From an uncultured Gaiellales bacterium (GTDB lineage: Bacteria > Actinomycetota > Thermoleophilia > RBG-16-64-13), in NCBI GenBank assembly GCA_964592075.1, contig CAZQDY010000004.1, forward strand, positions 16,527 to 80,526: a DNA stretch of 64,000 bases. Direction: 5' to 3'. The notes under the pieces are model-generated. The model made no database searches, had not been told where the DNA came from, and worked only from the letters and a program-made list of their open reading frames with translations. This document shows positions 30,564 through 57,351 of this stretch, piece after piece (positions within the stretch are counted from its first letter, which is position 1; each line of letters begins with the position of its first letter). Made by a program: the position numbers and the translations under genes.

Positions 30564-31784
30564 GTGAATCGATCGACGACTGGTGCGAGCATGACCGAGG
30601 TGGGTCGCGACAGTGGCGTGGACGGTGGGCGGCGGCTGAGGGTCTGGGCTCTCGAGCCCTACTTCGGCGGTTCGCACAAGGCCCATCTCGATGGCCTCAA
30701 GCGCTACTCCGGCCACGACTTCACCCTCTTGACGCTACCGGGGCGCTTCTGGAAATGGCGCATGCACGGGGGAGCTTTGTCTCTTGCCAGGCGCGTCGAC
30801 CAGGCCGTGGCCTCCACCGCCCAGGCTCACCCTCAGGTGCTCTTCGTTTCGGACATGCTCGACCTCCCGGTCTTCCTGGCGGCGGGGGGTCCGGGTCTCG
30901 CCCGGGTGCCGGCGATCCTCTACTTCCACGAGAACCAGCTCACCTATCCCTTGCCCCCCGGGGTGGGGCGTGACCTCGACTACGGGTTCAGGAACCTGAC
31001 CAGCGCTCTGGTAGCCCAGAGGGTCCTCTTCAACAGCGAGTATCACCGGCGGGAGTTCTTCGCCGCGGCAGCCGATCTGCTCCAGGCCATGCCCGACGAG
31101 GTGCCCCTCTGGGTCCTGGATGACGTGGCGGCGAAGGCCGGCGTGCTCCATGTGGGGTGCGATCTCCGCCGCTTGGACCGCCACCGCTCGCGGGCTTTGT
31201 CCGACGCGGCCGCCGGCCGGTGGGGCGACCCGTCCGCGGGACCTCTGCTCTTGTGGAACGCCCGCTGGGAATACGACAAAGCTCCCGGCGACCTGTTCGA
31301 GGCCCTGTACGCACTGAAGGCCTCAGGCGCCGGCTTTCGCCTGGCCATGGCCGGGCCCAACCAGGGCACGCCCACGGCCGAGTTCCTTCGGGCCAGTGTC
31401 GAACTGCGGGACCGGATCGTACAGTGGGGCAAGGTGGCCGAGTCTTCCGACTATGCCTCTCTGCTGTGGGCCTCGGACGTGGTTGTCTCCACCGCCATAC
31501 ACGAGTTCTTCGGGGTGGCGGCGGTGGAGGCGATGTACTGCGGATGCCGCCCCGTGCTGCCTCGGCGGCTGAGCTATCCTGAACTCGTCCCTGCCGAAGC
31601 GCATGGGGATGTGCTATACGGGGAAGGAGAGCTGGTGACGGCGCTGGCCCGGGCGCTGGCGGCGCCGCGCGCTTGGCCTGAGGACCGGCAGCGCGCCTGG
31701 GTCTCCCGCTTCGACTGGGCACACCTGATTGACCGGTACGACGAGGAGATCCAACGCTGTTGGCAAAGTGCGACCCCGGCGTGA
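30564..31784 (+). CDS. glycosyltransferase family 4 with N-terminal DUF3524 domain
   Basis: DUF3524-like LEPYFGGSHKAHLDGL. GT4 C-terminal motif EFFGVAAVEAMYCGCRPVLP. Start GTG 30564 or ATG 30591. Confidence 0.6.
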   Translation: MNRSTTGASMTEVGRDSGVDGGRRLRVWALEPYFGGSHKAHLDGLKRYSGHDFTLLTLPGRFWKWRMHGGALSLARRVDQAVASTAQAHPQVLFVSDMLDLPVFLAAGGPGLARVPAILYFHENQLTYPLPPGVGRDLDYGFRNLTSALVAQRVLFNSEYHRREFFAAAADLLQAMPDEVPLWVLDDVAAKAGVLHVGCDLRRLDRHRSRALSDAAAGRWGDPSAGPLLLWNARWEYDKAPGDLFEALYALKASGAGFRLAMAGPNQGTPTAEFLRASVELRDRIVQWGKVAESSDYASLLWASDVVVSTAIHEFFGVAAVEAMYCGCRPVLPRRLSYPELVPAEAHGDVLYGEGELVTALARALAAPRAWPEDRQRAWVSRFDWAHLIDRYDEEIQRCWQSATPA

Positions 31785-33195: not shown

Positions 33196-33825
33196 TTGCG
33201 GTACGTCGACATCGATACCTGGGATAGGTGGAGCTACTTCCAGAGGTATCTCGGCACCGACTTTCCCTACATAGTCATAGGGGCGGACATCGATGTCACC
33301 GGCCTGCTGGCGTTCTCGCGCAAGAACGGGCTCTCATCGTACCTTGCGATGATCTTCTCCGCTCATCACGTGGCGGAGTCCATGGAGAGTTTCAGGTACC
33401 GGATACTCGACGGCAGGCCCATCATCAACGAGCGGATGTGCCCGAGCTTCACCTACATCCCCGAAGGAAGCGATCTCTTCGTACTCGTGACCATGGATTT
33501 CGTGGATGACGTCCTCGAGTTCCACGAGAGAGCCAGGGCTAGGATAACCGCCCAGAACACCGATCCAGGGCTGGACGGCATCGCTGGGCGGTACGACATC
33601 ATCGGCTACTCCGCCGTCCCGTGGATCCAGTTCACGCATGTCATGCGGACCATCGGCAGGCTGGGGGCCGATTCCAACCCCAAGATGACATGGGGCAAGT
33701 ACTTCCAGCGGGGTGACAGGATGCTGATGCCTTTTTCGGTGCAGGTACATCACGGCCTGATGGACGGGCTGCACGTGGGCAGGTACTTCGAGGAGTTGCA
33801 GCGCTATTTGGACGGGCTGGAGTGA
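33196..33825 (+). CDS. cat: chloramphenicol O-acetyltransferase (type A CAT) family protein
   Basis: C-terminal region TWGKYFQRGDRMLMPFSVQVHHGLMDGLHVGRYFEELQRY matches classic CAT ([40 protein letters not shown]), including the catalytic His in the HH motif. Confidence 0.8.
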   Translation: MRYVDIDTWDRWSYFQRYLGTDFPYIVIGADIDVTGLLAFSRKNGLSSYLAMIFSAHHVAESMESFRYRILDGRPIINERMCPSFTYIPEGSDLFVLVTMDFVDDVLEFHERARARITAQNTDPGLDGIAGRYDIIGYSAVPWIQFTHVMRTIGRLGADSNPKMTWGKYFQRGDRMLMPFSVQVHHGLMDGLHVGRYFEELQRYLDGLE

Positions 33826-35301: not shown

Positions 35302-36078
35302 CTACCGGTCGGTCCGTGCGTAGATGCGCACCTCCGAAAGAGCCGTATCCTCCCACTCATAGCCGGGGTGGACCGAGACGATGGCCATCTTCACCCACTC
35401 GACCGGCTGGCGGGTGGGCAGGATCGTCTGAAAGTCCGGAGCGTCGAGCAGGTCCACCAATTGGACGGTGCCGGTGGAGTACTCTACCTTGAGCGTCTTG
35501 ATGCGGGGGTTGCCGGCGAAGCGGTCGTCGTCCTTCTGGAACCCGTTGGCTATCTCGATGCGCGTGAGCACCAGCTGCCGGGAGAACTCGAACTTGACCC
35601 ATTCGCCTAGACCCAGACCCTCGGCCCCCTCGTTCCACGCGGTGGCGACGTCGCCGTCCACCAGATTGGTGGGACGGTAGTTGTTGGTGGAGGTGGCCTT
35701 GAGGGTCGAAGACGCATCGACCGACGTCGGCCTGACGAGGATGGAGGCTTCGGAGGGCGAGGTCTGGCCGGAGCCGGAACCACCGGAGGACTCGCCGGGC
35801 AGAGTGGCGGTGGTGCCGGATATCCCGGCATACGGGTCGACCTCTTCCTCGGTGGCGAGCCCCTTCTGGATCACCGCATAGAGAGTGAAGACCGTGGCCG
35901 CGAGGATCAAGAGGAGCGCGAACGCCTTGAGTGCGCCGACCACCGTCACCCTGCGACGCCTGTGCAAGGACCCGGAAGGCGACCTCCCGTAGAGAGTCGC
36001 CCCGCAGCGGCTGCAGAAGAGGGAGTGCGCCTCGTTGATGGTCCGGCATTCGCCGCATCTCACGAATTGTGGGCTCAT
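35302..36078 (-). CDS. membrane-anchored protein: N-terminal zinc-ribbon, one TM helix, Ser/Gly-rich linker, C-terminal discoidin / NADase-type glycan-binding-like beta-sandwich domain
   Basis: CGECRTIN...CSRCG zinc ribbon. [25 protein letters not shown]-terminal region [18 protein letters not shown]...WVKFEFSR...IANGF. Confidence 0.55.
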
Positions 36079-36170
36079 CTGTGTCAGTGGTCCCCAGTCT
36101 CGAGAGGTCTCATGGGCATGGTCATGTGACGGTGATTATCGCAGGAGAGAGAGGTCGCTTCCCAGGCCTC

Positions 36171-36179
36171 TGCTAGAAT
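36171..36179 (+). promoter_or_regulatory. extended -10-like TGCTAGAAT upstream of the lsrF-like gene
   Basis: Identical 9-mer to the one upstream of metG (48295-48303). Lies 41 nt before the lsrF-like ATG. Confidence 0.35.
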
Positions 36180-36220
36180 CAGGGAGTCTGTCCCCTGCGA
36201 GAACAAGCGGAGAGTCATCG

Positions 36221-37117
36221 ATGCCGGATATCGACAGCCTCAAGGAATCCAAGAACTACTACCTCGATGTGCCGTATCGGCACGAAGCCTTCTTTGTCAA
36301 AGGTTCCACCTCGCTCGACTGGGGTATGCAGAACCGCCTGGCCCGCATCTTCAACCCTGCGTCAGGTCGGACTGTCATGCTGGCCATCGACCATGGTTAC
36401 TTCCAAGGACCGACTTCCGGCCTGGAGCGCGTCGACGTGAGCATCCTACCCTTGGCTCCCTATGCCGACGCACTCATGCTCACTCGAGGCATTCTCCGTA
36501 CGACCGTGCCCTCCTCCTGCGGCAAGGGGGTTGTCCTCCGGGCGAGCGGGGGCCCCAGCATCCTCAAAGAGCTGTCAAACGAGCAGTTGGCCCTGGATAT
36601 CGAAGACGCCGTGCGTCTCAACGCCGCCGCCATGGCCGTGCAGGTGTTCATCGGAGGCGAGTACGAGACGCAGTCCATCCACAACCTCACCCGGCTGGTC
36701 GACATGGGCAACCGGTACGGGGTGCCGGTGCTGGGCGTGACGGCCGTCGGCAAGAGCATGACCCGCGACGCCCGCTACTTCCGCCTGGCTTGCCGCATCG
36801 CGGCGGAGTTGGGCGCGCACTTCGTCAAGACCTACTACGTGGAAGAGGACTTCGAGACGGTGACGGCTTCATGCCCGGTGCCCATCGTGATGGCCGGCGG
36901 CAAGAAACTGCCCGAGCTCGACGCCCTCACCATGGCCTACAAAGCAGTGAGCGAGGGGGCCGCCGGGGTCGACATGGGCCGCAACATCTTCCAGTCGGAC
37001 GCTCCCGTGGCCATGATCCAGGCCGTGGGCAAGGTCGTGCACGAGAACATGAAGCCTGAAGAGGCTCACGAGTTCTTCCTCACGCTGAGAAGCGAGTCCC
37101 GGAAGGAGAACGAGTAG
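36221..37117 (+). CDS. lsrF: LsrF-like aldolase/thiolase (DeoC/FbaB family; 3-hydroxy-5-phosphonooxypentane-2,4-dione thiolase homologue)
   Basis: High similarity along the whole length to E. coli LsrF as I recall it ([60 protein letters not shown]). Start MPDIDSL; the ORF track adds 62 upstream codons. Confidence 0.8.
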
Positions 37118-37124
37118 GGGCGAG

Positions 37125-37862
37125 GTGGACGATACCTCGACACTAGGGCGCCTGCGGTCGCTCTGCCCCACTGTGAGCGTGGGGCTGCTGCCGGCCGACC
37201 TGATGAACCTGGGGGCGGAGCTGGCCATGCTGGAGGAGGCCGGAGCGGGGGTGGTCCACGTCGACGTGATGGACGGTTGCTTCTGCCCTCAGATGACGGT
37301 GGGGCCGCCCTATGTCAAGGGCCTGAGGACTCCCATGTTGAAGGACGTGCACCTCATGGTGCGCGAACCATTGGACAAGCTGGCCGGGTACGTGGACGCC
37401 GGAGCCGACATGATAACAGTGCACGTGGAGGCGGCCGTCCATATCCATCGGGTCCTGCAGCGGTTGGGCGGCATGGAGCACAGTGCGGGGCCGGAGCGGG
37501 GCATCGTCCGGGGGCTGGCTCTCAATCCCGGCACTCCTCTGGAATGGCTGACTCCTGCGCTCCTGGACGAGGTGGACATGGTCTCGCTTCTGGCGGTGGA
37601 TCCCGGTTGGAGCGGGCAACGGTTCGCACCCGGTACCTTGGCCCGCGTGGCACGGGCCAAGGAGTTCATCGCGGCGTCGGGTAGGGACATCCTTCTCTGC
37701 GTCGACGGTGGGATGACGAGAGGTAACATCGCTGAGGTGGCTGCGGCGGGGGTCGATATCGTGGCCGCGGGCAGCGCGGTGTTCGACGGCGGGTCCGCCG
37801 GCGCCGCGACTACCGGTGCAAACGCCCGTTTCATGCTCGACGCCGTCCGGGGAGCGCGGTAG
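37125..37862 (+). CDS. ribulose-phosphate 3-epimerase family protein (LsrE-like)
   Basis: RPE motifs HVDVMDG, PYVKGLR, DVHLMV, ITVHVEA, GLALNPGTP, VDPGWSGQ. 245 aa. Confidence 0.8.
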   Translation: MDDTSTLGRLRSLCPTVSVGLLPADLMNLGAELAMLEEAGAGVVHVDVMDGCFCPQMTVGPPYVKGLRTPMLKDVHLMVREPLDKLAGYVDAGADMITVHVEAAVHIHRVLQRLGGMEHSAGPERGIVRGLALNPGTPLEWLTPALLDEVDMVSLLAVDPGWSGQRFAPGTLARVARAKEFIAASGRDILLCVDGGMTRGNIAEVAAAGVDIVAAGSAVFDGGSAGAATTGANARFMLDAVRGAR

Positions 37863-37865
37863 CCC

Positions 37866-40025
37866 ATGCGCTCGCGGTGGTCGGAGGAAGAAGCGGCCGG
37901 GTTCGTGGCGCGCTACGGTCCCGAGTGGGGCGAGGCGCTCGCGCTTCGCACGTACTCCACACGGTTGGTGGGGGAGGACCCGGACCTCGTCCTGCACGGC
38001 GGGGGCAACTCGTCTGTCAAGGTGACCACCACCAACCTGTTCGGCGACGAGGTCTCGGTGGTCTACGTCAAGGCCTCCGGCGCCGACATGGCGACCATCG
38101 AGCCGGCGGAGCATCCTGGGCTTGACCTGGACTATCTACGGCGGCTGCGCGTGCTGCGAGAGCTGGGCGACGCGGATATGGTGGACCAGTTGCGAACCCA
38201 TCTGCTGCGCGCCGACAGCCCCACGCCCTCCATCGAGGCCTTGGTGCACGCCTTTCTGCCGGGGGTCTACATCGATCACACACATGCCGACGCGGTGATC
38301 GCTCTCACGAATCGCGAGCATGGCCTCTCCGTGGCCAGGGAGGCCTTGGGCGAGGACGTGATAGTGCTGCCCTACTTGACTCCCGGCTTCAAGCTTGCCC
38401 TGGCAGCGGCCCGGGCCCTCGACGACCACCCCGACGCTTGGGGAATGGTGTGGGCTCATCACGGGATCGTGACCTGGGGAGAGACCGCCCACGAGTCGTA
38501 CGAGATGATGATCCGTCTGGTATCGCGTGCCGAGCAGTGGATCGAGTCCAACAGGCCCCAAGCCGGGGGCCCGCCGGCGACCGGCCGGATCGTAGCTGCG
38601 GTCGCGTCTGAAGCGGAGGGGAGGCTCGCATCGCGTGCCGCCCAGGTGGCACCGATGCTACGTGGTCTCCTGGCGGAGCGGACCGGCGACTGTGACCGTC
38701 CGTACCGGCGTGTGGTGCTTCAGTGGTGCACGGGCCCCGAGATCCTGGCGGCGCTGGCCGCGCCCGCCGCTCGGGAGACCTTTGTCAGCCCGGTGCTTAC
38801 CACCGACCACCTGATCCGCGCCAAGGCCGAGCCGCTGTGGGTGGACGAGCTACCTCCGGGCGACCCGGACGCCGCCCGCGCCCAGCTGCAGGCGGCTGTG
38901 CAGGGGTATTGCGAACGGTACGAGTCTTACCTGGAGAGGCACGCTTCCGCTATGCCGGCCGGCGTGCAGCCGTTCGACCCTCAGCCGCGGGTGGTCATGA
39001 TCCAGGGCCTGGGGGTGTTCTGCGCGGGTCCGGATCTGCGCGACGCTCGGATCGCTCGGGACATCACCTTGCACACCATGGAGGTAAAGGCCGCGATCGC
39101 GGCCGGAGGCGCGAAGTACCACGGTCTTCCCGAGGAAGAGCTGTTCCGCATGGAGTACCGGACGCTACAGCACGCCAAGCTGCGACGGGCCGTGGCAGGT
39201 GGGGCAGAGGGCGCCCGGGCGCCGCTGCGCGGGCATGTGGCCGTGGTCACAGGGGCGGCCGGGGCCATCGGCACGGGCATCACCGAAGGGTTGCTGAATG
39301 CGGGCTGTTTGGTGGCGGCCACCGATCTGCCGGGCGGGCCTCTCACCACTCTAGTCCGGGAGATGGAGGCCCGTTTCCCGGAGAGGATCATCGGGCTGCC
39401 GCTGGACGTCACCGACCCCGAATCTGTCGCCGCCGCCTTCGACCAGCTGGCGAGGGCCTGGGGCGGCGTCGATCTGGTGATCCCCAACGCGGGGGTCGCC
39501 GCGGTGGCTCCGCTCACCGGACTGACCCTCGACCGCTACCGAAAGCTCGAACAGGTGAACGTGGAGGGAACGCTTCTGGTGCTGGCCGAGGCGGCCCGGT
39601 TGTTCAGGCGCCAGGCCACCGGAGGAGACATCGTGCTGGTGTCGACCAAGAACGTCTTCTCGCCGGGCGCCAACTTCGGAGCCTACAGCTCCACCAAGGC
39701 CGCGGCGCACCAGTTGGCCCGCGTCGCGAGCCTGGAGCTGGCGGCGGATGACGTGCGGGTCAACATGGTCGCTCCGGATGCCGTGTTCGCCTGCGGCGCC
39801 TGTCGCTCAGGGTTGTGGACCGAGGTCGGTCCCGACCGCATGAAGGCCCGGGGCCTGGACGAGGCGGGCCTGGAGGCCTACTACCAGAACCGTAATCTGC
39901 TCAAGGTCCAGGTCACGGCGGCCCACGTGGCGAGAGCGGTGCTCTTCTTCGCCACCAGGCAGACGCCCACCACCGGGGCCACCATCCCCGTGGACGGCGG
40001 TCTGCCGGATTCCACGCCCCGGTAG
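37866..40025 (+). CDS. bifunctional class II aldolase/adducin-domain + short-chain dehydrogenase protein (YuxG / rhamnulose-1-phosphate aldolase-SDR-like)
   Basis: N-terminal class II aldolase-like region ([13 protein letters not shown]). C-terminal SDR ([22 protein letters not shown]). 719 aa. Confidence 0.75.
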
Positions 40026-40069
40026 GCTGGACGCCGAGTCGCGTGCTGAGCCGGAAAGGAGGAGGACGT

Positions 40070-41134
40070 ATGTCTCACCCGGCCGGGCCCATCGATCTGA
40101 GAAGCGATACCGTCACCAAGCCGAGCGAAGCCATGCGCCGGGCTATGGCCGCGGCGCCCGTGGGCGACGACATCTACCGGGAGGACCCCACCGTCGAACT
40201 GCTCCAGAAGAGGGTGGCCGAGCTGTTGGGCAAGGAAGCGGCTCTCTTCGTCCCCTCCGGGACCATGGGTAACCAACTGTGCCTGCGCACGCTCACGCGC
40301 CCCGGCGACGAGGTCGTAGTGCATGAGGATGCGCATGTGATGCTCTACGAAGCGGGCTCCGCGGCCGCCCTGTCCGGGCTGCAGCTCCGTCCCGTGCCTG
40401 GAGTGCTCGGGGTCATCACGCCTGAGGAGGTGGAGCGGGTCATCAGGCCCGTGGCCGAGCACTTCCCCCGCACCACGGTGGTGGAGATGGAGAACACGCA
40501 CAACCGTTGCGGAGGCACCATATGGCCTCTGGAGCAGATGCAGGCCGTCGCGACCCTTGCTCGTTCGCGGGGAATGGCCGTGCATCTGGACGGAGCCCGT
40601 CTCTGGAACGCGCACGTGGCCACCGGTGTTGCTCTGGCCGCCTACGCGGCTACAGCCGACTCGGTCTCGGTCTGCTTCTCCAAGGGATTGGGCGCCCCTG
40701 TGGGTTCGGCCCTTGCAGGCACCGGCGACTTCGTCGAAGAGGCGCGCCGGAACCGCAGACGCTACGGCGGCGCGATGAGGCAGGCCGGGATCATCGCGGC
40801 GGGCGCGCTCTATGCCCTCGAGCACAACCTGGAGCGGCTCGCGGAGGATCACGAGAAGGCCGCGGTATTGGCCGGCTACCTCGAGCAGGTTCCCGGTATG
40901 GAGCTGGTCCATCCGGTGCAGACCAACATCCTCATAGCCTCGGTGGGCGGGCTGGGGGTGGGGGCGGAGCAGGTGGTGGCGGCCCTGAAGGAGGCGGGGG
41001 TCCTATGCGGGGTGGCGGCGGTCGACCGGGTCCGCTTCGTCACCCATCTGGATGTGAGCATGGAGGCCGTCAAGGCGGCCGGCGAGATCGTCGTGCCGGC
41101 TATCTCCGGGCTGGGAAGGCCGGTCGCGACATGA
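40070..41134 (+). CDS. ltaE: low-specificity L-threonine aldolase
   Basis: [39 protein letters not shown]...SGTMGNQ. RBS GGAAAGGAGGAGG. Confidence 0.85.
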
Positions 41135-41724
41135 CGGGGGGCGGTGAGTCGGGAGCACGGCAGGCGGGCGCGGCCGGGCCTGGGCCTGCGGCCGATCCTC
41201 GAGCGCCGTATGTGCGTCTGGCGGTGGCGGCTCTCATCGCTCGGGAGCACGAGGGCCCTCCGCTCGCGGCCGGCGGGGAGGCCGCCAAGCCGTCCGGGAC
41301 CGTCAGATGGCTCCTCGTGCATAGGACGGATCCGGTGGATGCCTGGGACCCGCCTGGTGGACGTGCGGAAGCAGGGGAGGATCTGAAGGCCGCCGTCCGG
41401 CGGGAGGCGGCTGAAGAGACCGGGCTCGCGGTGGAGGTGGCCGGTCCCTGCTACGCGTACCTGACGTTCCACAAGGGTGAGCGCCTACTGGCCGTCAGCA
41501 TGGCCTGCAGACTGCTCTGCGACCCGGACGACCTGACTCTGGAGGCGGGTCTCACGGACCGGCGTTGGGCGTCGGCTTCGGAATGGGAGGAACTGGCCCG
41601 CTCTGGACGTAGTACTTGGAATGAGCACGATGTGCGGAGGGCGCTGCGCATGGCCCAGGCCCTCTGGGACGTGGAGGCGGAGTGGACCGAGAACAGGCCC
41701 TGGGACTGGTCAAGGGGCGGGTGA
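41131..41724 (+). CDS. NUDIX hydrolase
   Basis: Nudix box [27 protein letters not shown] overlaps the ltaE stop (ATGA). Appears only as the tail of a longer nonsense ORF in the track. Confidence 0.7.
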
Positions 41725-42236
41725 AGAACGAGAACCTCGTCAGTCACATGGTGGCCGCGGAGGCCATCATGGGCGCCCTGGCCCGGCGGCTGGGCGGTGA
41801 CGAGGAGAAGTGGCGCCTGGCGGGGCTTCTGCATGATCTGGATGTGGAAGAGACCGCCGAGAGGATGGAGGTGCACGGCGCCCTGACCGTGCAATGGCTC
41901 CGTGAAGCAGGTCTGGACGACGAGGAAGTCCTGCGGGCCATCCTGGCTCACAACCCGGCCAACGGGTCCAGCGTGACCTCCGCAATGGACAGAGCCCTTT
42001 TCGCGTGCGATTGCCTCACCGGTCTGGTGACGGCGGCGGCGCTCATCCGGCCGGAGAAGAAGCTCGCTCCGGTGGAACTGAAGAGCCTACGGAAACGCTT
42101 CAAAGAACCTTCGTTCGCCAAGGGCGCCCGGCGGGAGGACATCATGACCTGCTCGGATCTGGGGCTGGAGCTGGAGGAGTTCCTGGCCATCGGTCTGGGT
42201 GCGATGAAGGAGGTGGCCGATGAGCTCGGACTCTGA
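41682..42236 (+). CDS. HD-domain metal-dependent phosphohydrolase
   Basis: LVSHMVAAEAIMGALARRLG...LAGLLHDLD...LAHN. Overlaps the NUDIX 3' end, so the true start may be internal. Confidence 0.6.
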   Translation: MDREQALGLVKGRVKNENLVSHMVAAEAIMGALARRLGGDEEKWRLAGLLHDLDVEETAERMEVHGALTVQWLREAGLDDEEVLRAILAHNPANGSSVTSAMDRALFACDCLTGLVTAAALIRPEKKLAPVELKSLRKRFKEPSFAKGARREDIMTCSDLGLELEEFLAIGLGAMKEVADELGL

Positions 42237-42453
42237 GCATGGCGGTCCCGTGCTGCTCACCAGCATCTATGACCCGGTGGAGGCTGAGATCGTGATCGCC
42301 AAGCTGCGCAGCGCGGGGATCGAGGCCTTCGTCCGGCACGAGGCCCTGTCGGTCGTCTACGGCCTGACCGTGGACGGCTTCGGCCAGCAAGACATCATGG
42401 TGCGCGCGGAGGAACTGGAGGAGGCCAAGATAGCGCTGGAGCAGACCCCGTAG
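42220..42453 (+). CDS. DUF2007-like small protein (putative signal-transducing protein)
   Basis: 77 aa. IYDPVEAEIVIAKLRSAGIEAFV pattern. Confidence 0.5.
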   Translation: MSSDSEHGGPVLLTSIYDPVEAEIVIAKLRSAGIEAFVRHEALSVVYGLTVDGFGQQDIMVRAEELEEAKIALEQTP

Positions 42454-42484: not shown

Positions 42485-43564
42485 ATGCCGATGCTGTCGG
42501 TTCTTGGAGCGGATGTGGGGGGGACCAAGATCGCGGTAGGCCCCGTGGACCCGGTGGGAGCGCAGCTCGCACCTCCCATCGTGGATCTCAGCCGCACGGA
42601 AGACACCGAATCGTTCCTGGCAGGGTTGGAGACCACACTGCGCCGCGCCATGACCCAGTTCGCCGACTTCGCCCCGGGAGCGGTAGGATTGGCCTGCGCC
42701 GGCACCGTGGACAGCGATCGCGGAGTGGTGGTGACCTCACCCAATCTGCCCTTGCGGGAGGTCCCGTTGGCGGCGCCGCTTCGGGAGGCTCTCGGCGTCC
42801 CCGTGGTGTTGGAGAACGATGCGAACGCCGCTCTGCTCGGTGAGTCTGTGGCCGGGGCGGCTCAGGGGCTGCGGCACGTGATCATGCTGACCCTCGGCAC
42901 CGGGGTCGGCGGGGCGCTGCTGCTGGACGGGCGCCTGTACCGGGGCGCCGGCGGCGCGGCCGGGGAGTTCGGCCACACCGTGGTGCAGATGGGCGGCCTC
43001 CCCTGCCGGTGCGGCATGAAAGGGTGCCTCGAGATGTACGCCTCGGGTCCCGCGCTGGCTCGCTACGCGAGCGCCCGGGTCCGCGACCCCGAGCGCGATC
43101 CGGGTAACGCGCTGCTCCACCTGCGCGAGCAGGGACTGCTGAGCGGGGGAGCGGTGGCCCGCCTGGCCAGAGAGGGGCATCGAGGCGCGGTCGAGGCCGT
43201 TCAGCAGCTTGCCGAGTGGCTGGGTGTCGGTCTCGCCAATCTCACCAACATCTTCAACCCCGAGATGATCGTGGTCGGGGGCGGGGTGGGGGAGCTTGGA
43301 GAACTCTTGCTGCGCTATGCGCGCGAGCACCTGATGAAGAACGCCATGCCGCCTGGGAAGGACCAGGTGCGGTTGGCGGCGGCGGAGTTGGGCAACAAGG
43401 CCGGTCTGGTGGGCGCCGGGCTTGCGGCTTGGGACCTGGTGCGCAGTCCGGGCGCGGCTCCGGCCGGCGGCGGGGCCGCCGCGCGGGGCACCGTGACCTC
43501 TGGGCCGGCGGCAGCCGGGTTGACGATCGACGAGCCGGCGGGCGACGAACCGGCGGCCGGCTGA
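42485..43564 (+). CDS. glcK: ROK family glucokinase with disordered C-terminal tail
   Basis: LGADVGGTKIAVG, ENDANAALLGE. ROK zinc motif CRCGMKGCLE. Confidence 0.8.
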   Translation: MPMLSVLGADVGGTKIAVGPVDPVGAQLAPPIVDLSRTEDTESFLAGLETTLRRAMTQFADFAPGAVGLACAGTVDSDRGVVVTSPNLPLREVPLAAPLREALGVPVVLENDANAALLGESVAGAAQGLRHVIMLTLGTGVGGALLLDGRLYRGAGGAAGEFGHTVVQMGGLPCRCGMKGCLEMYASGPALARYASARVRDPERDPGNALLHLREQGLLSGGAVARLAREGHRGAVEAVQQLAEWLGVGLANLTNIFNPEMIVVGGGVGELGELLLRYAREHLMKNAMPPGKDQVRLAAAELGNKAGLVGAGLAAWDLVRSPGAAPAGGGAAARGTVTSGPAAAGLTIDEPAGDEPAAG

Positions 43565-46113: not shown

Positions 46114-48162
46114 CTACGATGTCACCAACAGCAGGAGGTTGTAGAGCAGTTGCGCGCATTCTCCTCTCGAGGCCGGGGCGAAGAAGTCGTAGGAGGGGCC
46201 CACGCCGGCGAGCCCGTCCAGCAGGCCGGCATAGGCGAGCTTGCGGGCATTCAGGTAGTGCTCGTCGGGGTAGAACTGGCTCGCGCCGAAGCTGGGCGTG
46301 AACGAAGCCGGAGGCTCCGACAGGCCGGCCGCCCGCGCGACCATCGTGACCAGTTGCTGGCGGGTGATGTGGTCGTTGGGCGCGAAGGTGGTCGCGGTCT
46401 TGCCGGCGGTGAGGCCGTTGGCCTTGGCCACTGCTATGTAGTCGTGCGGGTAGATGTCGGCGAGATCGTCCGCGCCACAGTCGGTGAAGGGCTTGCTGCT
46501 ATCGGACCAGTCGGCCTCAGAGACCGGCAGTCCCATGACCCCGACGATCATCTTGGCGAAGTGCTTGCGGAACACCGGGTTGTCCGGACCGAAAGTGCCA
46601 TCGGTGTAGCCGGAGATGATGCCCTCGTCGGCGAGCGCGACTATGGCGGTGGCATAGGGGGTCACGCCGGGGATGACGTCGGTGAAGGAGCTGCCGCCCC
46701 CGCCGCCTCCGGGCGCGGTGGAGAAGCTCCACGTGATCGGCGCTCCGGCGAGCGTCTGACCGTCGGCGCCCTCAACGGCTGTGGTGAGGGTCACCTCGTA
46801 GGTGGCGCCGGCCTCCAGGTCGGCCGCTGGGTCAAGGGTGGCCGTGCGGGTGCCGGAGCTGTAGGCGACGGTCGCCGGAAGCGGGCTTCCGCCTGACTTC
46901 TGGACGTAGAAGGTGGCGCCCGTGAGGGTGGAGGCGTCCATGTTCTTGTCGAAGGTGGCCGCTATCGTCTGGCCCACCGGCACCGAAGTCGCCCCGGCGG
47001 CCGGGACCTTGGTGATCACGGAGGGCGCCTCCCCGGCAGTGGTGAAGCTCCATTCCACGGCAGAGGCGAGCGGCGTCCCCGCCCCGCTTTCGACAGCGGT
47101 GGTGAGCCTGACCTCGTAGGTCTCTCCCGGTTCCAGGCCGGCCACGGGGTCAAGGGTGGCCGTGCGGGTGGCGGCACTGTAGTCCACCACGGCCGGCAGC
47201 GGAGTCCCGCCCGACTTCTTGATGTAGAAGGTGGCGCTGGTGAGCGTGGCCGGGTCCATGTCTGTGTCGAAGGTGGCTGCGATCACTTGGCCCACAGGCA
47301 CCCCGGCCGTCCCGTTCGCCGGGATCTTGGTGGTGACGTGGGGCGTGGAGGCGGCGGTGGTGAAGGTCCAGGTGACCGGGGCCTGCATGAACAAGCCGTT
47401 CTCCGCTTTCACTGCCGTAGTGACGGTGACTATGTAGGTCGTGTTCTCATCGAGGGGGTTCTGGGGGGTGAGGGTCACCGTGCGCTTGTCGGAGCTCTTG
47501 GCCAGCGTGGCCGTCTTGAGGCCGCCCCCAGACTCCTGGAGAAAGAACGAGCTGCTGTTGACGGTGGACCAGTCCATGTCGTGGTCGAAGACGACCTGCA
47601 CCTGCTCGTCCACCGGCACGTCCGTTGCTCCGGTAGCCGGTCCATGCATCTTCACCTGCGGCCAGGTGATAGTGGTGAACGACCATGACCCCTCGTTGAA
47701 GAGATGGAGACCGGCGGCCTCGCTCACGATGGGGTTGACCAGATACGCCACATAGGTCGTTCCAGGCTCCAGATTGGCGACCGGGTTGAGCGTCGCCCTG
47801 TTGATGCCGAGCACAGCGTTGTAGGTGTAGGAGGTCGCCGCCGCCACTTTGAGGGTGGCCCCTTGCTTCTTCAGGTGGAAGGTGCCGTCGTTGATGGTGA
47901 TCGCCTCGAGTTTCAGGTTGAAGGAGACTCTCACGTTTGCATCGAGCGGGACCTCTGTTGCGTTCTTTGCCGGCTCCCAGCTCGAGGCTAGGAGATACTT
48001 CCCGATCGGAGGTTCGAAGCCGGGGGGCAGAAGCCCGGGGTCCAGGGCCTGAGCCTGGTCCACGCCGCCCTGGTGGGGGGCGGTGCACACAAGACCCAGG
48101 GCTAAGGCAAACAGCAGGATCAAGGGCAACAGGGTTCTGCGTTGGAACAGGCGCTTCTTCAT
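46114..48162 (-). CDS. S-layer-type secreted protein: signal peptide, tandem Ig-like (Big_5/SbsA-like) domains, three C-terminal SLH domains
   Basis: Signal peptide MKKRLFQRRTLLPLILLFALALG with GGAGG RBS (start 48162). ~88-aa tandem repeats (ATFDTDMDPATLTSATFYIKKSGG... and ATFDKNMDASTLTGATFYVQKSGG...). C-terminal SLH motifs (FTDV...YTDGTFGPDNP..., ITRQQLVTMVARAAGL). The ORF track's 196 upstream codons are not credible. Confidence 0.8.
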   Translation of the reverse strand: MKKRLFQRRTLLPLILLFALALGLVCTAPHQGGVDQAQALDPGLLPPGFEPPIGKYLLASSWEPAKNATEVPLDANVRVSFNLKLEAITINDGTFHLKKQGATLKVAAATSYTYNAVLGINRATLNPVANLEPGTTYVAYLVNPIVSEAAGLHLFNEGSWSFTTITWPQVKMHGPATGATDVPVDEQVQVVFDHDMDWSTVNSSSFFLQESGGGLKTATLAKSSDKRTVTLTPQNPLDENTTYIVTVTTAVKAENGLFMQAPVTWTFTTAASTPHVTTKIPANGTAGVPVGQVIAATFDTDMDPATLTSATFYIKKSGGTPLPAVVDYSAATRTATLDPVAGLEPGETYEVRLTTAVESGAGTPLASAVEWSFTTAGEAPSVITKVPAAGATSVPVGQTIAATFDKNMDASTLTGATFYVQKSGGSPLPATVAYSSGTRTATLDPAADLEAGATYEVTLTTAVEGADGQTLAGAPITWSFSTAPGGGGGGSSFTDVIPGVTPYATAIVALADEGIISGYTDGTFGPDNPVFRKHFAKMIVGVMGLPVSEADWSDSSKPFTDCGADDLADIYPHDYIAVAKANGLTAGKTATTFAPNDHITRQQLVTMVARAAGLSEPPASFTPSFGASQFYPDEHYLNARKLAYAGLLDGLAGVGPSYDFFAPASRGECAQLLYNLLLLVTS
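46800..47450. repeat. intragenic tandem duplication (~318-nt period) encoding repeated Ig-like domains of the S-layer protein
   Basis: Near-identical peptides on both strands at 318-nt offset (antisense ORFs 46913-47119 and 47231-47437 are near-copies). Confidence 0.4.
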
Positions 48163-48294
48163 GGCCCCCTCCTCATCGCATGCGAACCGGGAGCGATCTG
48201 CTCCCTTCATGAATTCGAGTATAGGCTTGTTGGACGGCGCGTCAATGGCCGTTTGCCCGTTTGGTGCCTTGGTGTCGGGCGTGAGGTGGCCTTC

Positions 48295-48303
48295 TGCTAG
48301 AAT
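48295..48303 (+). promoter_or_regulatory. extended -10-like TGCTAGAAT 10 nt upstream of the metG ATG
   Basis: Same 9-mer as upstream of the lsrF-like gene. Its proximity to the ATG suggests a very short or absent leader. Confidence 0.35.
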
Positions 48304-48312
48304 AGCCCGGCC

Positions 48313-50004
48313 ATGGGGCGCTTCTACATCACCACCCCTATCTACTACGTCAACGACGTGCCGCACATCGGGCACGCCTACACCACCGCCGCCGCGGACG
48401 TGGCGGCGAGGTTCCACCGCCAACTGGGCGACGATGTGTTCTTCCTCACCGGCACCGATGAGCACGGCACGAAGGTGGAGCAGGCGGCGGCCGCCCGGGG
48501 GCTGACGCCCAAAGAGCATGTGGACGAGGTGGTGGTCAAGTTCAGGGAAGTGGCGGCGAAAGTGGGGGCCAGCAACGACTTCTTCATCCGCACCACCGAC
48601 TCCGAGCACGAGCGGTACGTGCAGCAGTTCGTGCAGCGCTGCTACGATGCCGGCGATATCTACAAGAAGGCGTACTCGGGCCTCTACTGCCGGGCGTGCG
48701 AGGCCTACTACACCGAGGAGAACCTGGTAGACGGGCTCTGCCCCGACCACGGCACCGCCCCGGTGCTCATGGAAGAGGAGAACTACTTCTTCCGTCTATC
48801 CGCCTTCCAGGATCGTCTGGCGGCCCATTACCGGGACAACCAAGATTTCGTGCGCCCCAAGCACCGCTACAACGAAGCGCTGTCGTTCATCGAGCAGGGG
48901 CTGGACGATATCTCTATCTCCCGTTCCACGTTGAAGTGGGGCATCGGCGTACCATGGGACGAGACCCAGGTCATCTACGTGTGGGTGGATGCCCTCATCA
49001 ACTACATGAGCGCGCTGACCTACGCTCCCGGCCAAGATCTGTTCTCGCGTTTCTGGCCGGCGAGCTACCACCTCATGGCCCAGGACATCCTCAAGTTCCA
49101 CGGCGTGATCTGGCCGGCGCTGTTGATGTCGGCGGGGTATGAGCTGCCGGAGCATCTGTTCATCCACGGCTACCTGAAGCTCGGTGGAGAGAAGATGTCG
49201 AAGACGCGCGGGAATGTGATGGACCCCTTCCCGCTCATCGAGCAGTATGGGGCCGACGCGTTCAGGTTGTACTGCCTGCGTGAGGTGAGTTTCGGGCAGG
49301 ACGGCATGGTGAGCGAGGAGGGCTTCAAGGCCCGCTACAACAGTGAGCTGGCCAACGAACTCGGCAACCTGGTATCGCGGACCGCTTCCATGATCGGCAA
49401 GTACCGGGGCGGCGCGGTGCCCGCGCCGCCCCCCGGCTATGCCGACCCGCCGGAGTGTACCCACGCGCACCCAGGTTCACCGCTCGCCGTGGAGGCAACC
49501 GCGGCCTGTGCCGCGGTCCGCACCCAGCTCGAAGAGCTGGACCTGACGGCGGCCCTGGAGACCATCTGGACCTTCGTGCGCCGCCTGAATCGGTATGTCG
49601 AGGAGCAGGCGCCCTGGAAGCTGGCCAAGGAAGCGGCCGCCGAGGAGGCCGGGGCGGCCCCAGCGGCCCCTGGCGACGGCGGGACCGCCGGAGCGCCGGG
49701 CTTGGTCGCCGACAAGCCCGGCGCCGTCGGCCCTGGGCGGGGCGCCCTCCCGGGGCCGGCTACCGTCGCGCTAGACGCCACCCTGTGGGACCTGGCTGAG
49801 GGGCTGCGCCTTCTGTCGGTATTGCTCCACCCGTTCATGCCGCAGACGGCGATGGCCATCAGGGAGCGGCTGGGGTTGACCTCTGCCGGTTCTGCCTCCG
49901 ACACTGCGACCGGTCCGAGTTGGGACGAAGCGCGATGGGGACTGCTGGCGCCCGGTCTGAGGGTCACCGCGGGGGGCGCTCTGTTCCCCCGGATCGAGGA
50001 CTGA
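48313..50004 (+). CDS. metG: methionyl-tRNA synthetase (short form, with a low-complexity insertion in the C-terminal region)
   Basis: HIGH motif PYIGHAYT region (TTPIYYVNDVPHIGHAYT). KMSKS motif (GEKMSKTRGN). Ala/Gly/Pro-rich insertion near the C-terminus. Confidence 0.9.
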   Translation: MGRFYITTPIYYVNDVPHIGHAYTTAAADVAARFHRQLGDDVFFLTGTDEHGTKVEQAAAARGLTPKEHVDEVVVKFREVAAKVGASNDFFIRTTDSEHERYVQQFVQRCYDAGDIYKKAYSGLYCRACEAYYTEENLVDGLCPDHGTAPVLMEEENYFFRLSAFQDRLAAHYRDNQDFVRPKHRYNEALSFIEQGLDDISISRSTLKWGIGVPWDETQVIYVWVDALINYMSALTYAPGQDLFSRFWPASYHLMAQDILKFHGVIWPALLMSAGYELPEHLFIHGYLKLGGEKMSKTRGNVMDPFPLIEQYGADAFRLYCLREVSFGQDGMVSEEGFKARYNSELANELGNLVSRTASMIGKYRGGAVPAPPPGYADPPECTHAHPGSPLAVEATAACAAVRTQLEELDLTAALETIWTFVRRLNRYVEEQAPWKLAKEAAAEEAGAAPAAPGDGGTAGAPGLVADKPGAVGPGRGALPGPATVALDATLWDLAEGLRLLSVLLHPFMPQTAMAIRERLGLTSAGSASDTATGPSWDEARWGLLAPGLRVTAGGALFPRIED

Positions 50005-57279: not shown

Positions 57280-57351
57280 TGGGGCGTGGCCAAGTGGTAA
57301 GGCAACGGGTTTTGGTCCCGTCATTCGTAGGTTCGAATCCTGCCGCCCCAG
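57280..57351 (+). tRNA. tRNA-Gln (anticodon TTG)
   Basis: Cloverleaf folded by hand: acceptor TGGGGCG/CGCCCCA with U1-A72 pair, D-arm GCC...GGC, anticodon stem ACGGG/CCCGT with loop TTTTGGT, T-arm GTAGG-TTCGAAT-CCTGC. CCA not encoded. Confidence 0.8.

Follow-up and report, generated by a model that had tools for sequence, protein, structure and literature searches.

Does a gene of the LsrF family mark the processing of autoinducer-2 (AI-2) wherever it occurs? The question is raised by three adjoining plus-strand genes on a 64-kb stretch of DNA from an uncultured Gaiellales bacterium (contig CAZQDY010000004.1; the whole stretch is called the window below), which a first-pass annotation had likened to the distal part of the Salmonella lsrFGE operon. 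Gene 1 (36221..37117) encodes a 298-aa LsrF-type thiolase of class I aldolase fold, in the family of the 3-hydroxy-5-phosphonooxypentane-2,4-dione (P-HPD) thiolases (NF006081); gene 2 (37125..37862) encodes a 245-aa LsrE-type member of the ribulose-phosphate 3-epimerase (RPE) family (Pfam Ribul_P_3_epim); and gene 3 (37866..40025) encodes a 719-aa fusion of a class II aldolase with a short-chain dehydrogenase/reductase (SDR), an architecture referred to here as AldSDR (Aldolase_II plus adh_short; NF006194). The intergenic gaps are 7 and 3 bases. The first-pass reading proved correct in the main. The unit of three genes is kept together in at least six bacterial phyla, and we propose, as a tentative reading whose chances we put a little below even, that it is a catabolic module complete in itself and independent of AI-2.

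Results

A thiolase–dehydrogenase pair is conserved across phyla

One genome per species was scanned, and a relative of gene 1 is encoded in at least 585 of them; the best 80, with 71–96% identity, were kept. They belong to the Actinomycetota, Acidobacteriota, Desulfobacterota (in the broad sense), Planctomycetota, Verrucomicrobiota, Lentisphaerota and Nitrospirota. The comparison covered 83 loci, with 10 kb of each genome on either side, and used tblastn, all-against-all clustering of open reading frames (ORFs) and hidden Markov models (HMMs) built from the loci. Adjacency was counted over the 64 loci whose downstream flank was 3.5 kb or longer; many of the loci from metagenome-assembled genomes (MAGs) are short or frameshifted. 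A 1118-aa ORF that runs from LsrF into the aldolase, with the SDR in another frame (L057:9739-13095), was set aside as a probable indel or frameshift artefact of a long-read MAG.

The LsrF-like gene adjoins a dehydrogenase gene in 63 of the 64 loci, the lone exception (L042) having two plain SDR genes just upstream. The dehydrogenase is an AldSDR-type SDR in 51 loci, with the class II aldolase domain fused to it, and a Zn-dependent alcohol dehydrogenase (ZnADH; TIGR02822) in a further 12, all from Desulfobacterota. An LsrE-type epimerase lies beside the LsrF-like gene in 34 of the 64. That the dehydrogenase has repeatedly been swapped for a non-homologous type argues for a required redox step. 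In the reverse check, made within the lineage of the window, AldSDR homologues of two other loci (L084 and L086, 64–67% identity) were found to be preceded by DeoC-family and RPE-family genes. Clustering of the ORFs revealed no further gene family that recurs across phyla, and the flanks consist of housekeeping and lineage-specific genes, such as pgi, dinB, ROK, rsmI and metG in the Actinomycetota and ruvABC, purF, folK and moxR in the Acidobacteriota. The cluster is thus kept far beyond its source lineage, and the lack of conservation that the first-pass annotation had named as a refutation did not arise. A neighbour-joining tree of the LsrF proteins largely tracks the phyla, with the enteric and alphaproteobacterial sequences on a separate branch, which argues for long vertical inheritance, and the module therefore appears to be old.

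Gene 1 belongs to the LsrF family

Gene 1 had been called very similar to LsrF throughout, a description borne out by an end-to-end match to NF006081 (500 bits, cut-off 297) and by 60% identity to Escherichia coli LsrF over 288 ungapped positions. Its scores on other NCBIfam models are 194 bits for 2-amino-3,7-dideoxy-D-threo-hept-6-ulosonate (ADH) synthase, 128 bits for archaeal class I fructose-bisphosphate aldolase (FBA) (NF040816, cut-off 430) and 32 bits for the FbaB type (NF006704, cut-off 277). Among PDB structures it scores 388 bits against E. coli LsrF, 134 against MJ0400 and 61 against Thermoproteus tenax FBA. Asp57, the Schiff-base Lys203, Tyr205 and Asp251 are invariant in 84 of 84 aligned members of the family. 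Asp251 was singled out by Diaz et al. as the LsrF-specific substitute for the catalytic Tyr/Glu of true aldolases, the position being Ala in close FBA and ADH-synthase homologues (PMC2728841). As judged by model scores, PDB scores and catalytic residues, gene 1 is a true LsrF-family protein and does not group with the generic DhnA/FbaB aldolases, the other result that would have refuted the first-pass reading; its identification as a glycolytic class I FBA was rejected, since the model scores and Asp251 contradict it. The E. coli enzyme, in the summary of Marques (2014) given in PMC7828210, converts P-HPD and coenzyme A (CoA) to dihydroxyacetone phosphate (DHAP) and acetyl-CoA. For gene 1, a CoA-dependent cleavage of P-HPD (EC 2.3.1.245) may be predicted from the homology and the conserved catalytic residues.

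Gene 2 resembles LsrE and not the housekeeping epimerase

Gene 2 scores 174 bits on Pfam Ribul_P_3_epim, and its 186.7 bits on TIGR01163, the equivalog model of canonical RPE, lie under the cut-off of 212.6. Set against a canonical RPE structure, gene 2 retains the metal ligands and the catalytic Asp residues, but its pocket motifs are altered: MDNHYVPN becomes MDGCFCP(M/Q), LLMSVNPGFGGQ becomes LLLAVNPGWGGQ, IDVHLMV becomes KDVHLMI and DGGVN becomes DGGIT. The motifs are likewise replaced, with the metal ligands retained, in all of 38 LsrF-adjacent copies from other phyla, where several of the changes show no variation and the rest very little. Overall identity to Salmonella LsrE (sequence taken from the annotated record) is 34%, and LsrE and the module copies have in common a 3-aa deletion and an 8-9-aa insertion, as well as the motifs MDG.F.P, K-DVH, LLAV.PG and DG..T, all of which are without counterpart in canonical RPE. 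By these derived indels and active-site changes gene 2 is LsrE-type and not a housekeeping RPE, in agreement with its first description as rpe/lsrE-like. Because LsrE and the module copies have these characters in common, LsrF and LsrE are a widespread couple and no oddity of Salmonella. Deletion of lsrE left AI-2 uptake and lsr transcription without detectable change (PMC2728841).

Gene 3 is an aldolase–dehydrogenase fusion distinct from RhaEW

The 719-aa protein was correctly recognized at the outset as a class II aldolase joined to an SDR. Its domain of class II aldolase/adducin fold occupies aa 1-230 (37866..38555; Aldolase_II at aa 38-225), a conserved middle region aa ~231-450 (38556..39215) and the NAD-type SDR domain aa ~451-719 (39216..40025; adh_short at aa 458-640, PF00106/PF13561). 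The description of the gene as yuxG-like stands for the fusion architecture, which is that of RhaEW (YuxG), but does not extend to orthology: gene 3 scores 860.8 bits on NF006194 (cut-off 686), while the 469.8 bits on TIGR02632, the RhaEW equivalog, fall short of the cut-off of 567.75. By these scores gene 3 is a member of subfamily NF006194 and not RhaEW.

In the aldolase part the phosphate loop GGGNxS is intact, as are Glu124, His128 and the metal triad His138/His140/His199, and the nearest solved relatives of this part are 3m4r, followed by FucA-type aldolases and APIP/MtnB. The middle region is without a Pfam model and is predicted to be alpha/beta; a locus-derived HMM gives 250-300 bits with the fused homologues, the confidence of its AlphaFold2 model is mostly good, and a fold comparison of this region gave no informative match. 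In the SDR part TGxxxGxG (462-469), Asp487 at the end of beta-2 and the tetrad Asn565-Ser593-Tyr607-Lys611 are invariant. An Asp that closes beta-2 of an SDR is the usual sign of a preference for NAD, and the nearest solved relatives are 3-hydroxybutyrate, 2,3-butanediol/acetoin, sorbitol(-6-phosphate) and xylitol dehydrogenases. With Asp487, and with nearest relatives that oxidize secondary alcohols of the CH3-CHOH type, the SDR looks oxidative.

Other lsr genes are missing from the window

The first-pass annotation had listed lsrK, lsrG, lsrR and a transporter as absent, and this holds for the window, where tblastn with E. coli LsrK, LsrR, LsrC, LsrD, LsrB and LsrG gave no match and the sole match of LsrA is a generic ATP-binding cassette (ABC) ATPase (26%, ~17 kb away). 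It extends to the comparison, as E. coli LsrG (at E<1e-5), LsrR, LsrB, LsrC and LsrD had no tblastn match in any of the 83 loci. FGGY kinases occur in a few distant loci, and those tested score as glycerol kinase or as rhamnulokinase-like. The canonical lsr operons of E. coli, Salmonella and Lacticaseibacillus are entirely different in layout.

Gene contexts in other lineages

In the Planctomycetes–Verrucomicrobia–Chlamydiae (PVC) loci the SDR of the same subfamily stands alone and the aldolase is either separate and divergent or absent. Neighbours here are an L-rhamnose isomerase gene (rhaA; 706 bits, cut-off 572) and a rhamnulokinase-like FGGY kinase (457 bits, under the cut-off of 528), together with, as recognized by eye, an RpiR-type regulator and in one case an apparent rmlA/rmlB. 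Among all loci it is only in these relatives that rhaA or a rhamnulokinase-like gene was found; in the window and in the Actinomycetota and Acidobacteriota loci there were no genes of a rha locus (rhaA, rhaB, transporter or regulator). At locus L040 the LsrF-like gene is paired with a true RhaEW (763 bits, cut-off 568), and at L064 and L076 with an AldSDR of subfamily NF006196, so that the AldSDR proteins paired with LsrF comprise NF006194, NF006196 and true RhaEW. The order in Smithella is glpK-glpABC-LsrF-like-ZnADH (glpK identified by scan and glpABC by eye), and in the Syntrophobacterales a stand-alone class II aldolase of 198 aa is encoded divergently from the LsrF-like-ZnADH pair.

The alphaproteobacterial AldSDR is 45% identical to the NF006196 type and 34% identical to gene 3. 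Further contexts come from annotated records of cultured bacteria. In Shinella lsrF and AldSDR are followed by genes for sugar ABC transport, for a kinase of the FGGY family and for an oxidase resembling GlpD. The Sagittula operon encodes a transporter, a regulator of the SorC type, a GlpD-like oxidase and an FGGY kinase, and then LsrF and a protein of aldolase fold that lacks the SDR; its dehydrogenase is thus of a third, GlpD-like type. Both loci lie on plasmids (Sagittula/Shinella, L091:174-10081 and L092:6801-16879), their FGGY kinase is 27% identical to LsrK, and in layout they resemble a polyol (erythritol-type) catabolic locus, though annotated lsrF.

In the Bacteroidota Aureibacter tunicatorum and Parabacteroides distasonis an lsrF homologue directly follows dhaK-dhaL (L088:6224-8894, L089:6291-8873). 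These loci, with no adjoining dehydrogenase, aldolase or lsr gene, represent a fourth distinct context of the LsrF family.

Genomic surroundings of the operon

The region has a G+C content of 66%, and its closest public relatives are MAGs of Thermoleophilia/Actinomycetota. Upstream of gene 1 there is an intergenic region (36079..36220, plus strand), divergent from a minus-strand gene, in which a promoter scan found no sigma-70 consensus. A Shine-Dalgarno-like GGAGAG lies 7-12 nt 5' of the ATG of gene 1. A scan of the operon against Rfam returned no RNA family, and no terminator-like site was found on the plus strand between 35200 and 44800, the sole such site being on the minus strand at 44395-44378.

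Downstream, on the plus strand, are ltaE (40043..41134), which encodes a pyridoxal-phosphate enzyme of the threonine aldolase type (LtaE/GntG family; NF041359 398 bits, cut-off 230), and then in order genes for NUDIX (41131-41724), HD (41682-42236), DUF2007 (42220-42453) and ROK kinase (42485-43564) proteins, followed by rsmI. The identities from ltaE to the ROK kinase were as first annotated, as was the lack of obvious terminators between these genes; what did not survive the comparison was their inclusion in the cluster. Although ltaE lies directly 3' of the module in most Actinomycetota loci, ltaE, NUDIX and HD are absent from L002 and outside the Actinomycetota and are thus not core. The ltaE-NUDIX-HD-DUF2007-ROK genes were rejected as core members, having been found in Actinomycetota loci only; this is lineage-specific synteny outside the conserved unit.

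Upstream of the operon are pgi, a chloramphenicol-acetyltransferase (CAT)-like gene and dinB, with the gene for an NADase-type discoidin protein on the opposite strand. The latter (35302-36078, minus strand) encodes a zinc ribbon, a membrane anchor and an NADase-type F5/8 discoidin glycan-binding domain (NF047619, 130 bits); its position is kept in nearly all Actinomycetota loci with sufficient upstream flank, and it is found at none of the loci from other phyla. The CAT-fold ORF (33196-33825, plus strand), between pgi and dinB, scores 101 bits on PF00302 and 118 bits on the CatA model, far under the cut-off of 270. As pgi is followed directly by dinB in the relatives L002 and L086, this ORF is a variable insertion. 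Just 5' of pgi lies a glycosyltransferase gene (30564-31784, plus strand) whose L001 homologue has QTMAN_N (PF12038) and Glycos_transf_1 domains; QTMAN_N is the N-terminal domain of glycosyltransferases of the queuosine-tRNA mannosyltransferase type. Further downstream, a long minus-strand ORF (46114-48750) encodes Ig-like (Big_5) repeats, each of ~100 aa, and after them S-layer-homology domains, and since its listed start overlaps the start of metG (48313) the true start is probably further in. A lone tRNA gene (57280-57351, plus strand) is the sole Rfam match of the window at the gathering threshold.

Discussion

What might a thiolase, an epimerase and an aldolase–dehydrogenase fusion do together? 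We propose that the module first oxidizes a ketose-1-phosphate and then splits off its DHAP-like end by thiolysis, in place of an aldol cleavage, a proposal to which we attach slightly less than even confidence. We infer this order of events from the constant pairing of the thiolase with a dehydrogenase of varying family, from the frequent presence of a class II aldolase fold of the DHAP type, and from neighbours in other lineages that would be expected to make ketose-1-phosphates or DHAP, namely rhaA with the rhamnulokinase-like gene in PVC bacteria, the FGGY kinase with the GlpD-like oxidase in Shinella and Sagittula, glpK-glpABC in Smithella and dhaKL in Bacteroidota. The ketose-1-phosphate could come from a kinase encoded at another site, or the aldolase domain could make it from DHAP and acetaldehyde or lactaldehyde. 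This domain would bind an enediolate of the DHAP type and would either supply the ketose-1-phosphate or equilibrate it with DHAP and the aldehyde; acetaldehyde with DHAP would give 5-deoxypentulose-1-phosphate and lactaldehyde with DHAP would give rhamnulose-1-phosphate. The fused NAD-dependent SDR would then oxidize the C4 hydroxyl to yield a 3-hydroxy-2,4-dioxoalkyl phosphate, which in the C5 case is P-HPD, the known substrate of LsrF.

The LsrE-type epimerase would invert C3, the last stereocentre remaining. Of the four stereocomplementary DHAP aldolases, the RhaD/FucA type set 3R, while class I enzymes of the FBA type handle 3S, and an inversion at C3 would bridge these opposite configurations. 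The LsrF-type enzyme would form its Schiff base at the ketone adjacent to the phosphate, with CoA attacking the other carbonyl, and the products would be DHAP and an acyl-CoA, either acetyl-CoA or lactoyl-CoA. Were the aldolase to work as a condensing enzyme, DHAP would serve as a carrier, with the net reaction aldehyde + NAD+ + CoA to acyl-CoA + NADH, and the lineage-specific ltaE directly 3' would then fit as a source of acetaldehyde, a possible accessory.

Any one substrate is a good deal more doubtful than the route itself. The most plausible candidates are still those suggested in the first-pass annotation, a 5-carbon dione phosphate and compounds that would be derived from 5-deoxyribose or be rhamnulose-like. 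P-HPD (CH3-CO-CHOH-CO-CH2OP) is the C4-oxidized form of 5-deoxypentulose-1-phosphate and equally of 1-deoxypentulose-5-phosphate, and formally it is the 1-deoxy-4-keto analogue of the substrate of RPE. The LsrE signature common to the module copies suggests a C5 compound, P-HPD itself.

Several known systems bear on this proposal. Like the enterobacterial lsrFG(E) operons (E. coli b1517-b1518, Salmonella lsrFGE), the module has an LsrF-family thiolase with identical catalytic residues and, like that of Salmonella, an LsrE-type epimerase with the same derived indels and motifs, encoded here directly 3' of the thiolase gene; the likely products, DHAP and an acyl-CoA, would also be the same. It differs in that the window is without LsrG, LsrK, LsrR and LsrACDB and has the aldolase–dehydrogenase fusion in their place, and in its housekeeping context and vertical inheritance across phyla.

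With RhaEW of Bacillus subtilis and Chloroflexus aurantiacus, gene 3 has in common the class II aldolase, middle region and NAD-type SDR and a place in the same NCBIfam model family (PRK08324), whereas the use of an LsrF-type thiolase, to which gene 3 is coupled, is unreported for the RhaEW organisms studied so far. RhaEW itself converts rhamnulose-1-phosphate and NAD+ to DHAP and lactate and releases no DHAP when NAD+ is omitted (PMC3870299). By analogy, this requirement for NAD+ fits an oxidation that precedes cleavage of the C–C bond.

The DHAP shunt for salvage of 5-deoxyribose (MtnK/DrdK, MtnA/DrdI, Ald2/DrdA) likewise employs an enzyme of class II aldolase fold, which acts on a 5-deoxy-ketopentose-1-phosphate and returns DHAP (pathway as in PMC6079011). 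On structural grounds, 5-deoxyribulose-1-phosphate oxidized at C4 would be exactly P-HPD. In the module, however, oxidation would come first and the C2 unit would be released as acetyl-CoA and not as acetaldehyde, and a thiolase and an epimerase are added; no clustered MtnK/DrdK kinase or MtnA/DrdI isomerase was found by ORF clustering and by profile scans of part of the neighbouring ORFs. The polyol/erythritol-type loci of the Alphaproteobacteria also combine an lsrF homologue with an AldSDR or aldolase-fold gene, on the Shinella and Sagittula plasmids, and their FGGY kinase and GlpD-like oxidase would make ketose-1-phosphates; the window differs in having no transporter, kinase of that type or GlpD-like gene.

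A number of points weigh against the proposed route. Neither the aldolase domain nor the epimerase is obligatory, the first being absent or divergent at several PVC loci and the second lacking from about half of all loci. C3 lies between two carbonyls, however, and might racemize spontaneously, which could account for the loci that do without an epimerase. No linked kinase, isomerase or transporter was found in the Actinomycetota and Acidobacteriota loci. RhaEW alone gives DHAP and lactate in vitro, so that an extra thiolase seems redundant unless the mechanism differs, and free aldehydes could be converted with the same net result by one acylating aldehyde dehydrogenase. What the data show is the membership of the families, the intact catalytic residues, and the linkage of the genes and its distribution; the chemistry at each step is inferred, as are the substrate, the acyl group and the direction of flux.

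Another possibility, which we regard as unlikely, is that the module acts on ketose-5-phosphates and not on ketose-1-phosphates, with the LsrE-type protein as a ketose-5-phosphate 3-epimerase and LsrF again giving DHAP and acetyl-CoA. In one version ribulose-5-phosphate or xylulose-5-phosphate would be dehydrated or oxidized by the aldolase-fold/SDR protein to phosphorylated 4,5-dihydroxypentane-2,3-dione (P-DPD) and from there converted to P-HPD; in the other a 1-deoxy-pentulose-5-phosphate, of the type of 1-deoxyxylulose-5-phosphate (DXP), would be oxidized at C4. The module would then be a phosphoketolase-like bypass or, in reverse, a DXS-independent route to DXP. Membership of gene 2 in the RPE family, whose substrates are 2-keto-5-phosphates, with the catalytic metal site intact, would agree with this, as would the binding of ribulose-5-phosphate in LsrF crystals (PMC2728841). 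A kinase or transporter would not be needed, in keeping with housekeeping surroundings that include pgi and a ROK kinase, and the class II aldolase superfamily includes dehydratases (MtnB/APIP) and 4-epimerases (AraD), which are among the profile matches. However, the contexts elsewhere, with rhamnulokinase-like, rhaA, GlpD-like, glpK-glpABC and dhaKL genes, indicate substrates of the ketose-1-phosphate/DHAP type, the aldolase domain has its nearest relatives among the DHAP-dependent FucA-type aldolases, the NAD-type SDR speaks against a biosynthetic, reductive direction, and about half of the loci have no epimerase.

Less probable again is that the genes are adjacent without a joint function, as an ordinary RhaEW-type enzyme, a pentose-phosphate epimerase and a central class I aldolase in a conserved housekeeping region. 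The flanking genes (pgi, dinB, ROK, rsmI and metG; ruvABC, purF and folK) are indeed of the housekeeping kind, the LsrF tree tracks the phyla as that of a housekeeping gene would, and homologues of gene 3 carry the Joint Genome Institute (JGI) label 'rhamnose utilization protein RhaD'. Yet these flanks vary by phylum while the LsrF–dehydrogenase pair persists, the genes are only 3-7 bases apart, gene 1 has the LsrF-specific Asp251 and just 32-128 bits on FBA models, gene 2 has LsrE-type signatures and lies under the RPE equivalog cut-off, and gene 3 lies under that of RhaEW. That LsrF and LsrE here constitute a genuine unit for degradation of AI-2, with kinase, isomerase and importer encoded elsewhere, and serve to quench or consume the AI-2 of neighbouring cells, is in our view very improbable. 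Gene 1 does pass the NCBIfam equivalog for the thiolase of the AI-2 pathway, gene 2 is LsrE-type, and public annotations label the family 'AI-2 aldolase'; against this, lsrG, lsrR and lsrB were found in none of the 83 loci and the few FGGY kinases that were tested are glycerol kinase or rhamnulokinase-like. LsrF is constantly paired with a dehydrogenase, for which the Lsr pathway has no use, the inheritance is vertical in a housekeeping context, the lineages that carry the genes are those of soil and sediment and syntrophic ones, and canonical lsr operons look quite different.

The proposal of oxidation followed by thiolysis can be extended to a wider reading, about which we are distinctly more doubtful. 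LsrF, LsrE and the fusion would together constitute an unrecognized route for the breakdown or use of ketose-1-phosphates by way of a beta-diketone phosphate, in which an energy-rich acyl-CoA leaves and not a toxic aldehyde. With the aldolase condensing, DHAP would be a catalytic carrier, by means of which acetaldehyde would become acetyl-CoA or lactaldehyde lactoyl-CoA. The enteric lsrF and lsrE, which serve in AI-2 degradation, would be late recruits from this older module, LsrE would be a P-HPD 3-epimerase, and RhaEW would also work oxidation-first.

The component parts belong to known families. A literature search found no description of an LsrF-AldSDR-LsrE module or of a role of LsrF outside AI-2, part of the search being obscured by unrelated uses of the acronym 'LSRE'. 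The AI-2 vocabulary has already been applied in environmental work, where Sfum_2464 of Syntrophobacter was called an AI-2 receptor (PMC10787695). As the LsrF family occurs in a metabolic module without AI-2 genes, it is unsafe to read the labels 'LsrF' and 'AI-2 aldolase' as evidence of quorum sensing or quenching; lsrF would be a poor marker of quorum sensing in environmental genomes, and 'LsrF' would here mark an undescribed route of sugar-phosphate cleavage and not cell-to-cell signalling. The proposal also offers a specific, testable function for LsrE and calls into question the accepted mechanism of RhaEW. The predicted oxidative and thiolytic cleavage of ketose-1-phosphates to DHAP and acyl-CoA would be a new cleavage chemistry and, if the proposal is true, could be useful for engineering aldehyde-free assimilation of deoxy-sugars or of C2 units.

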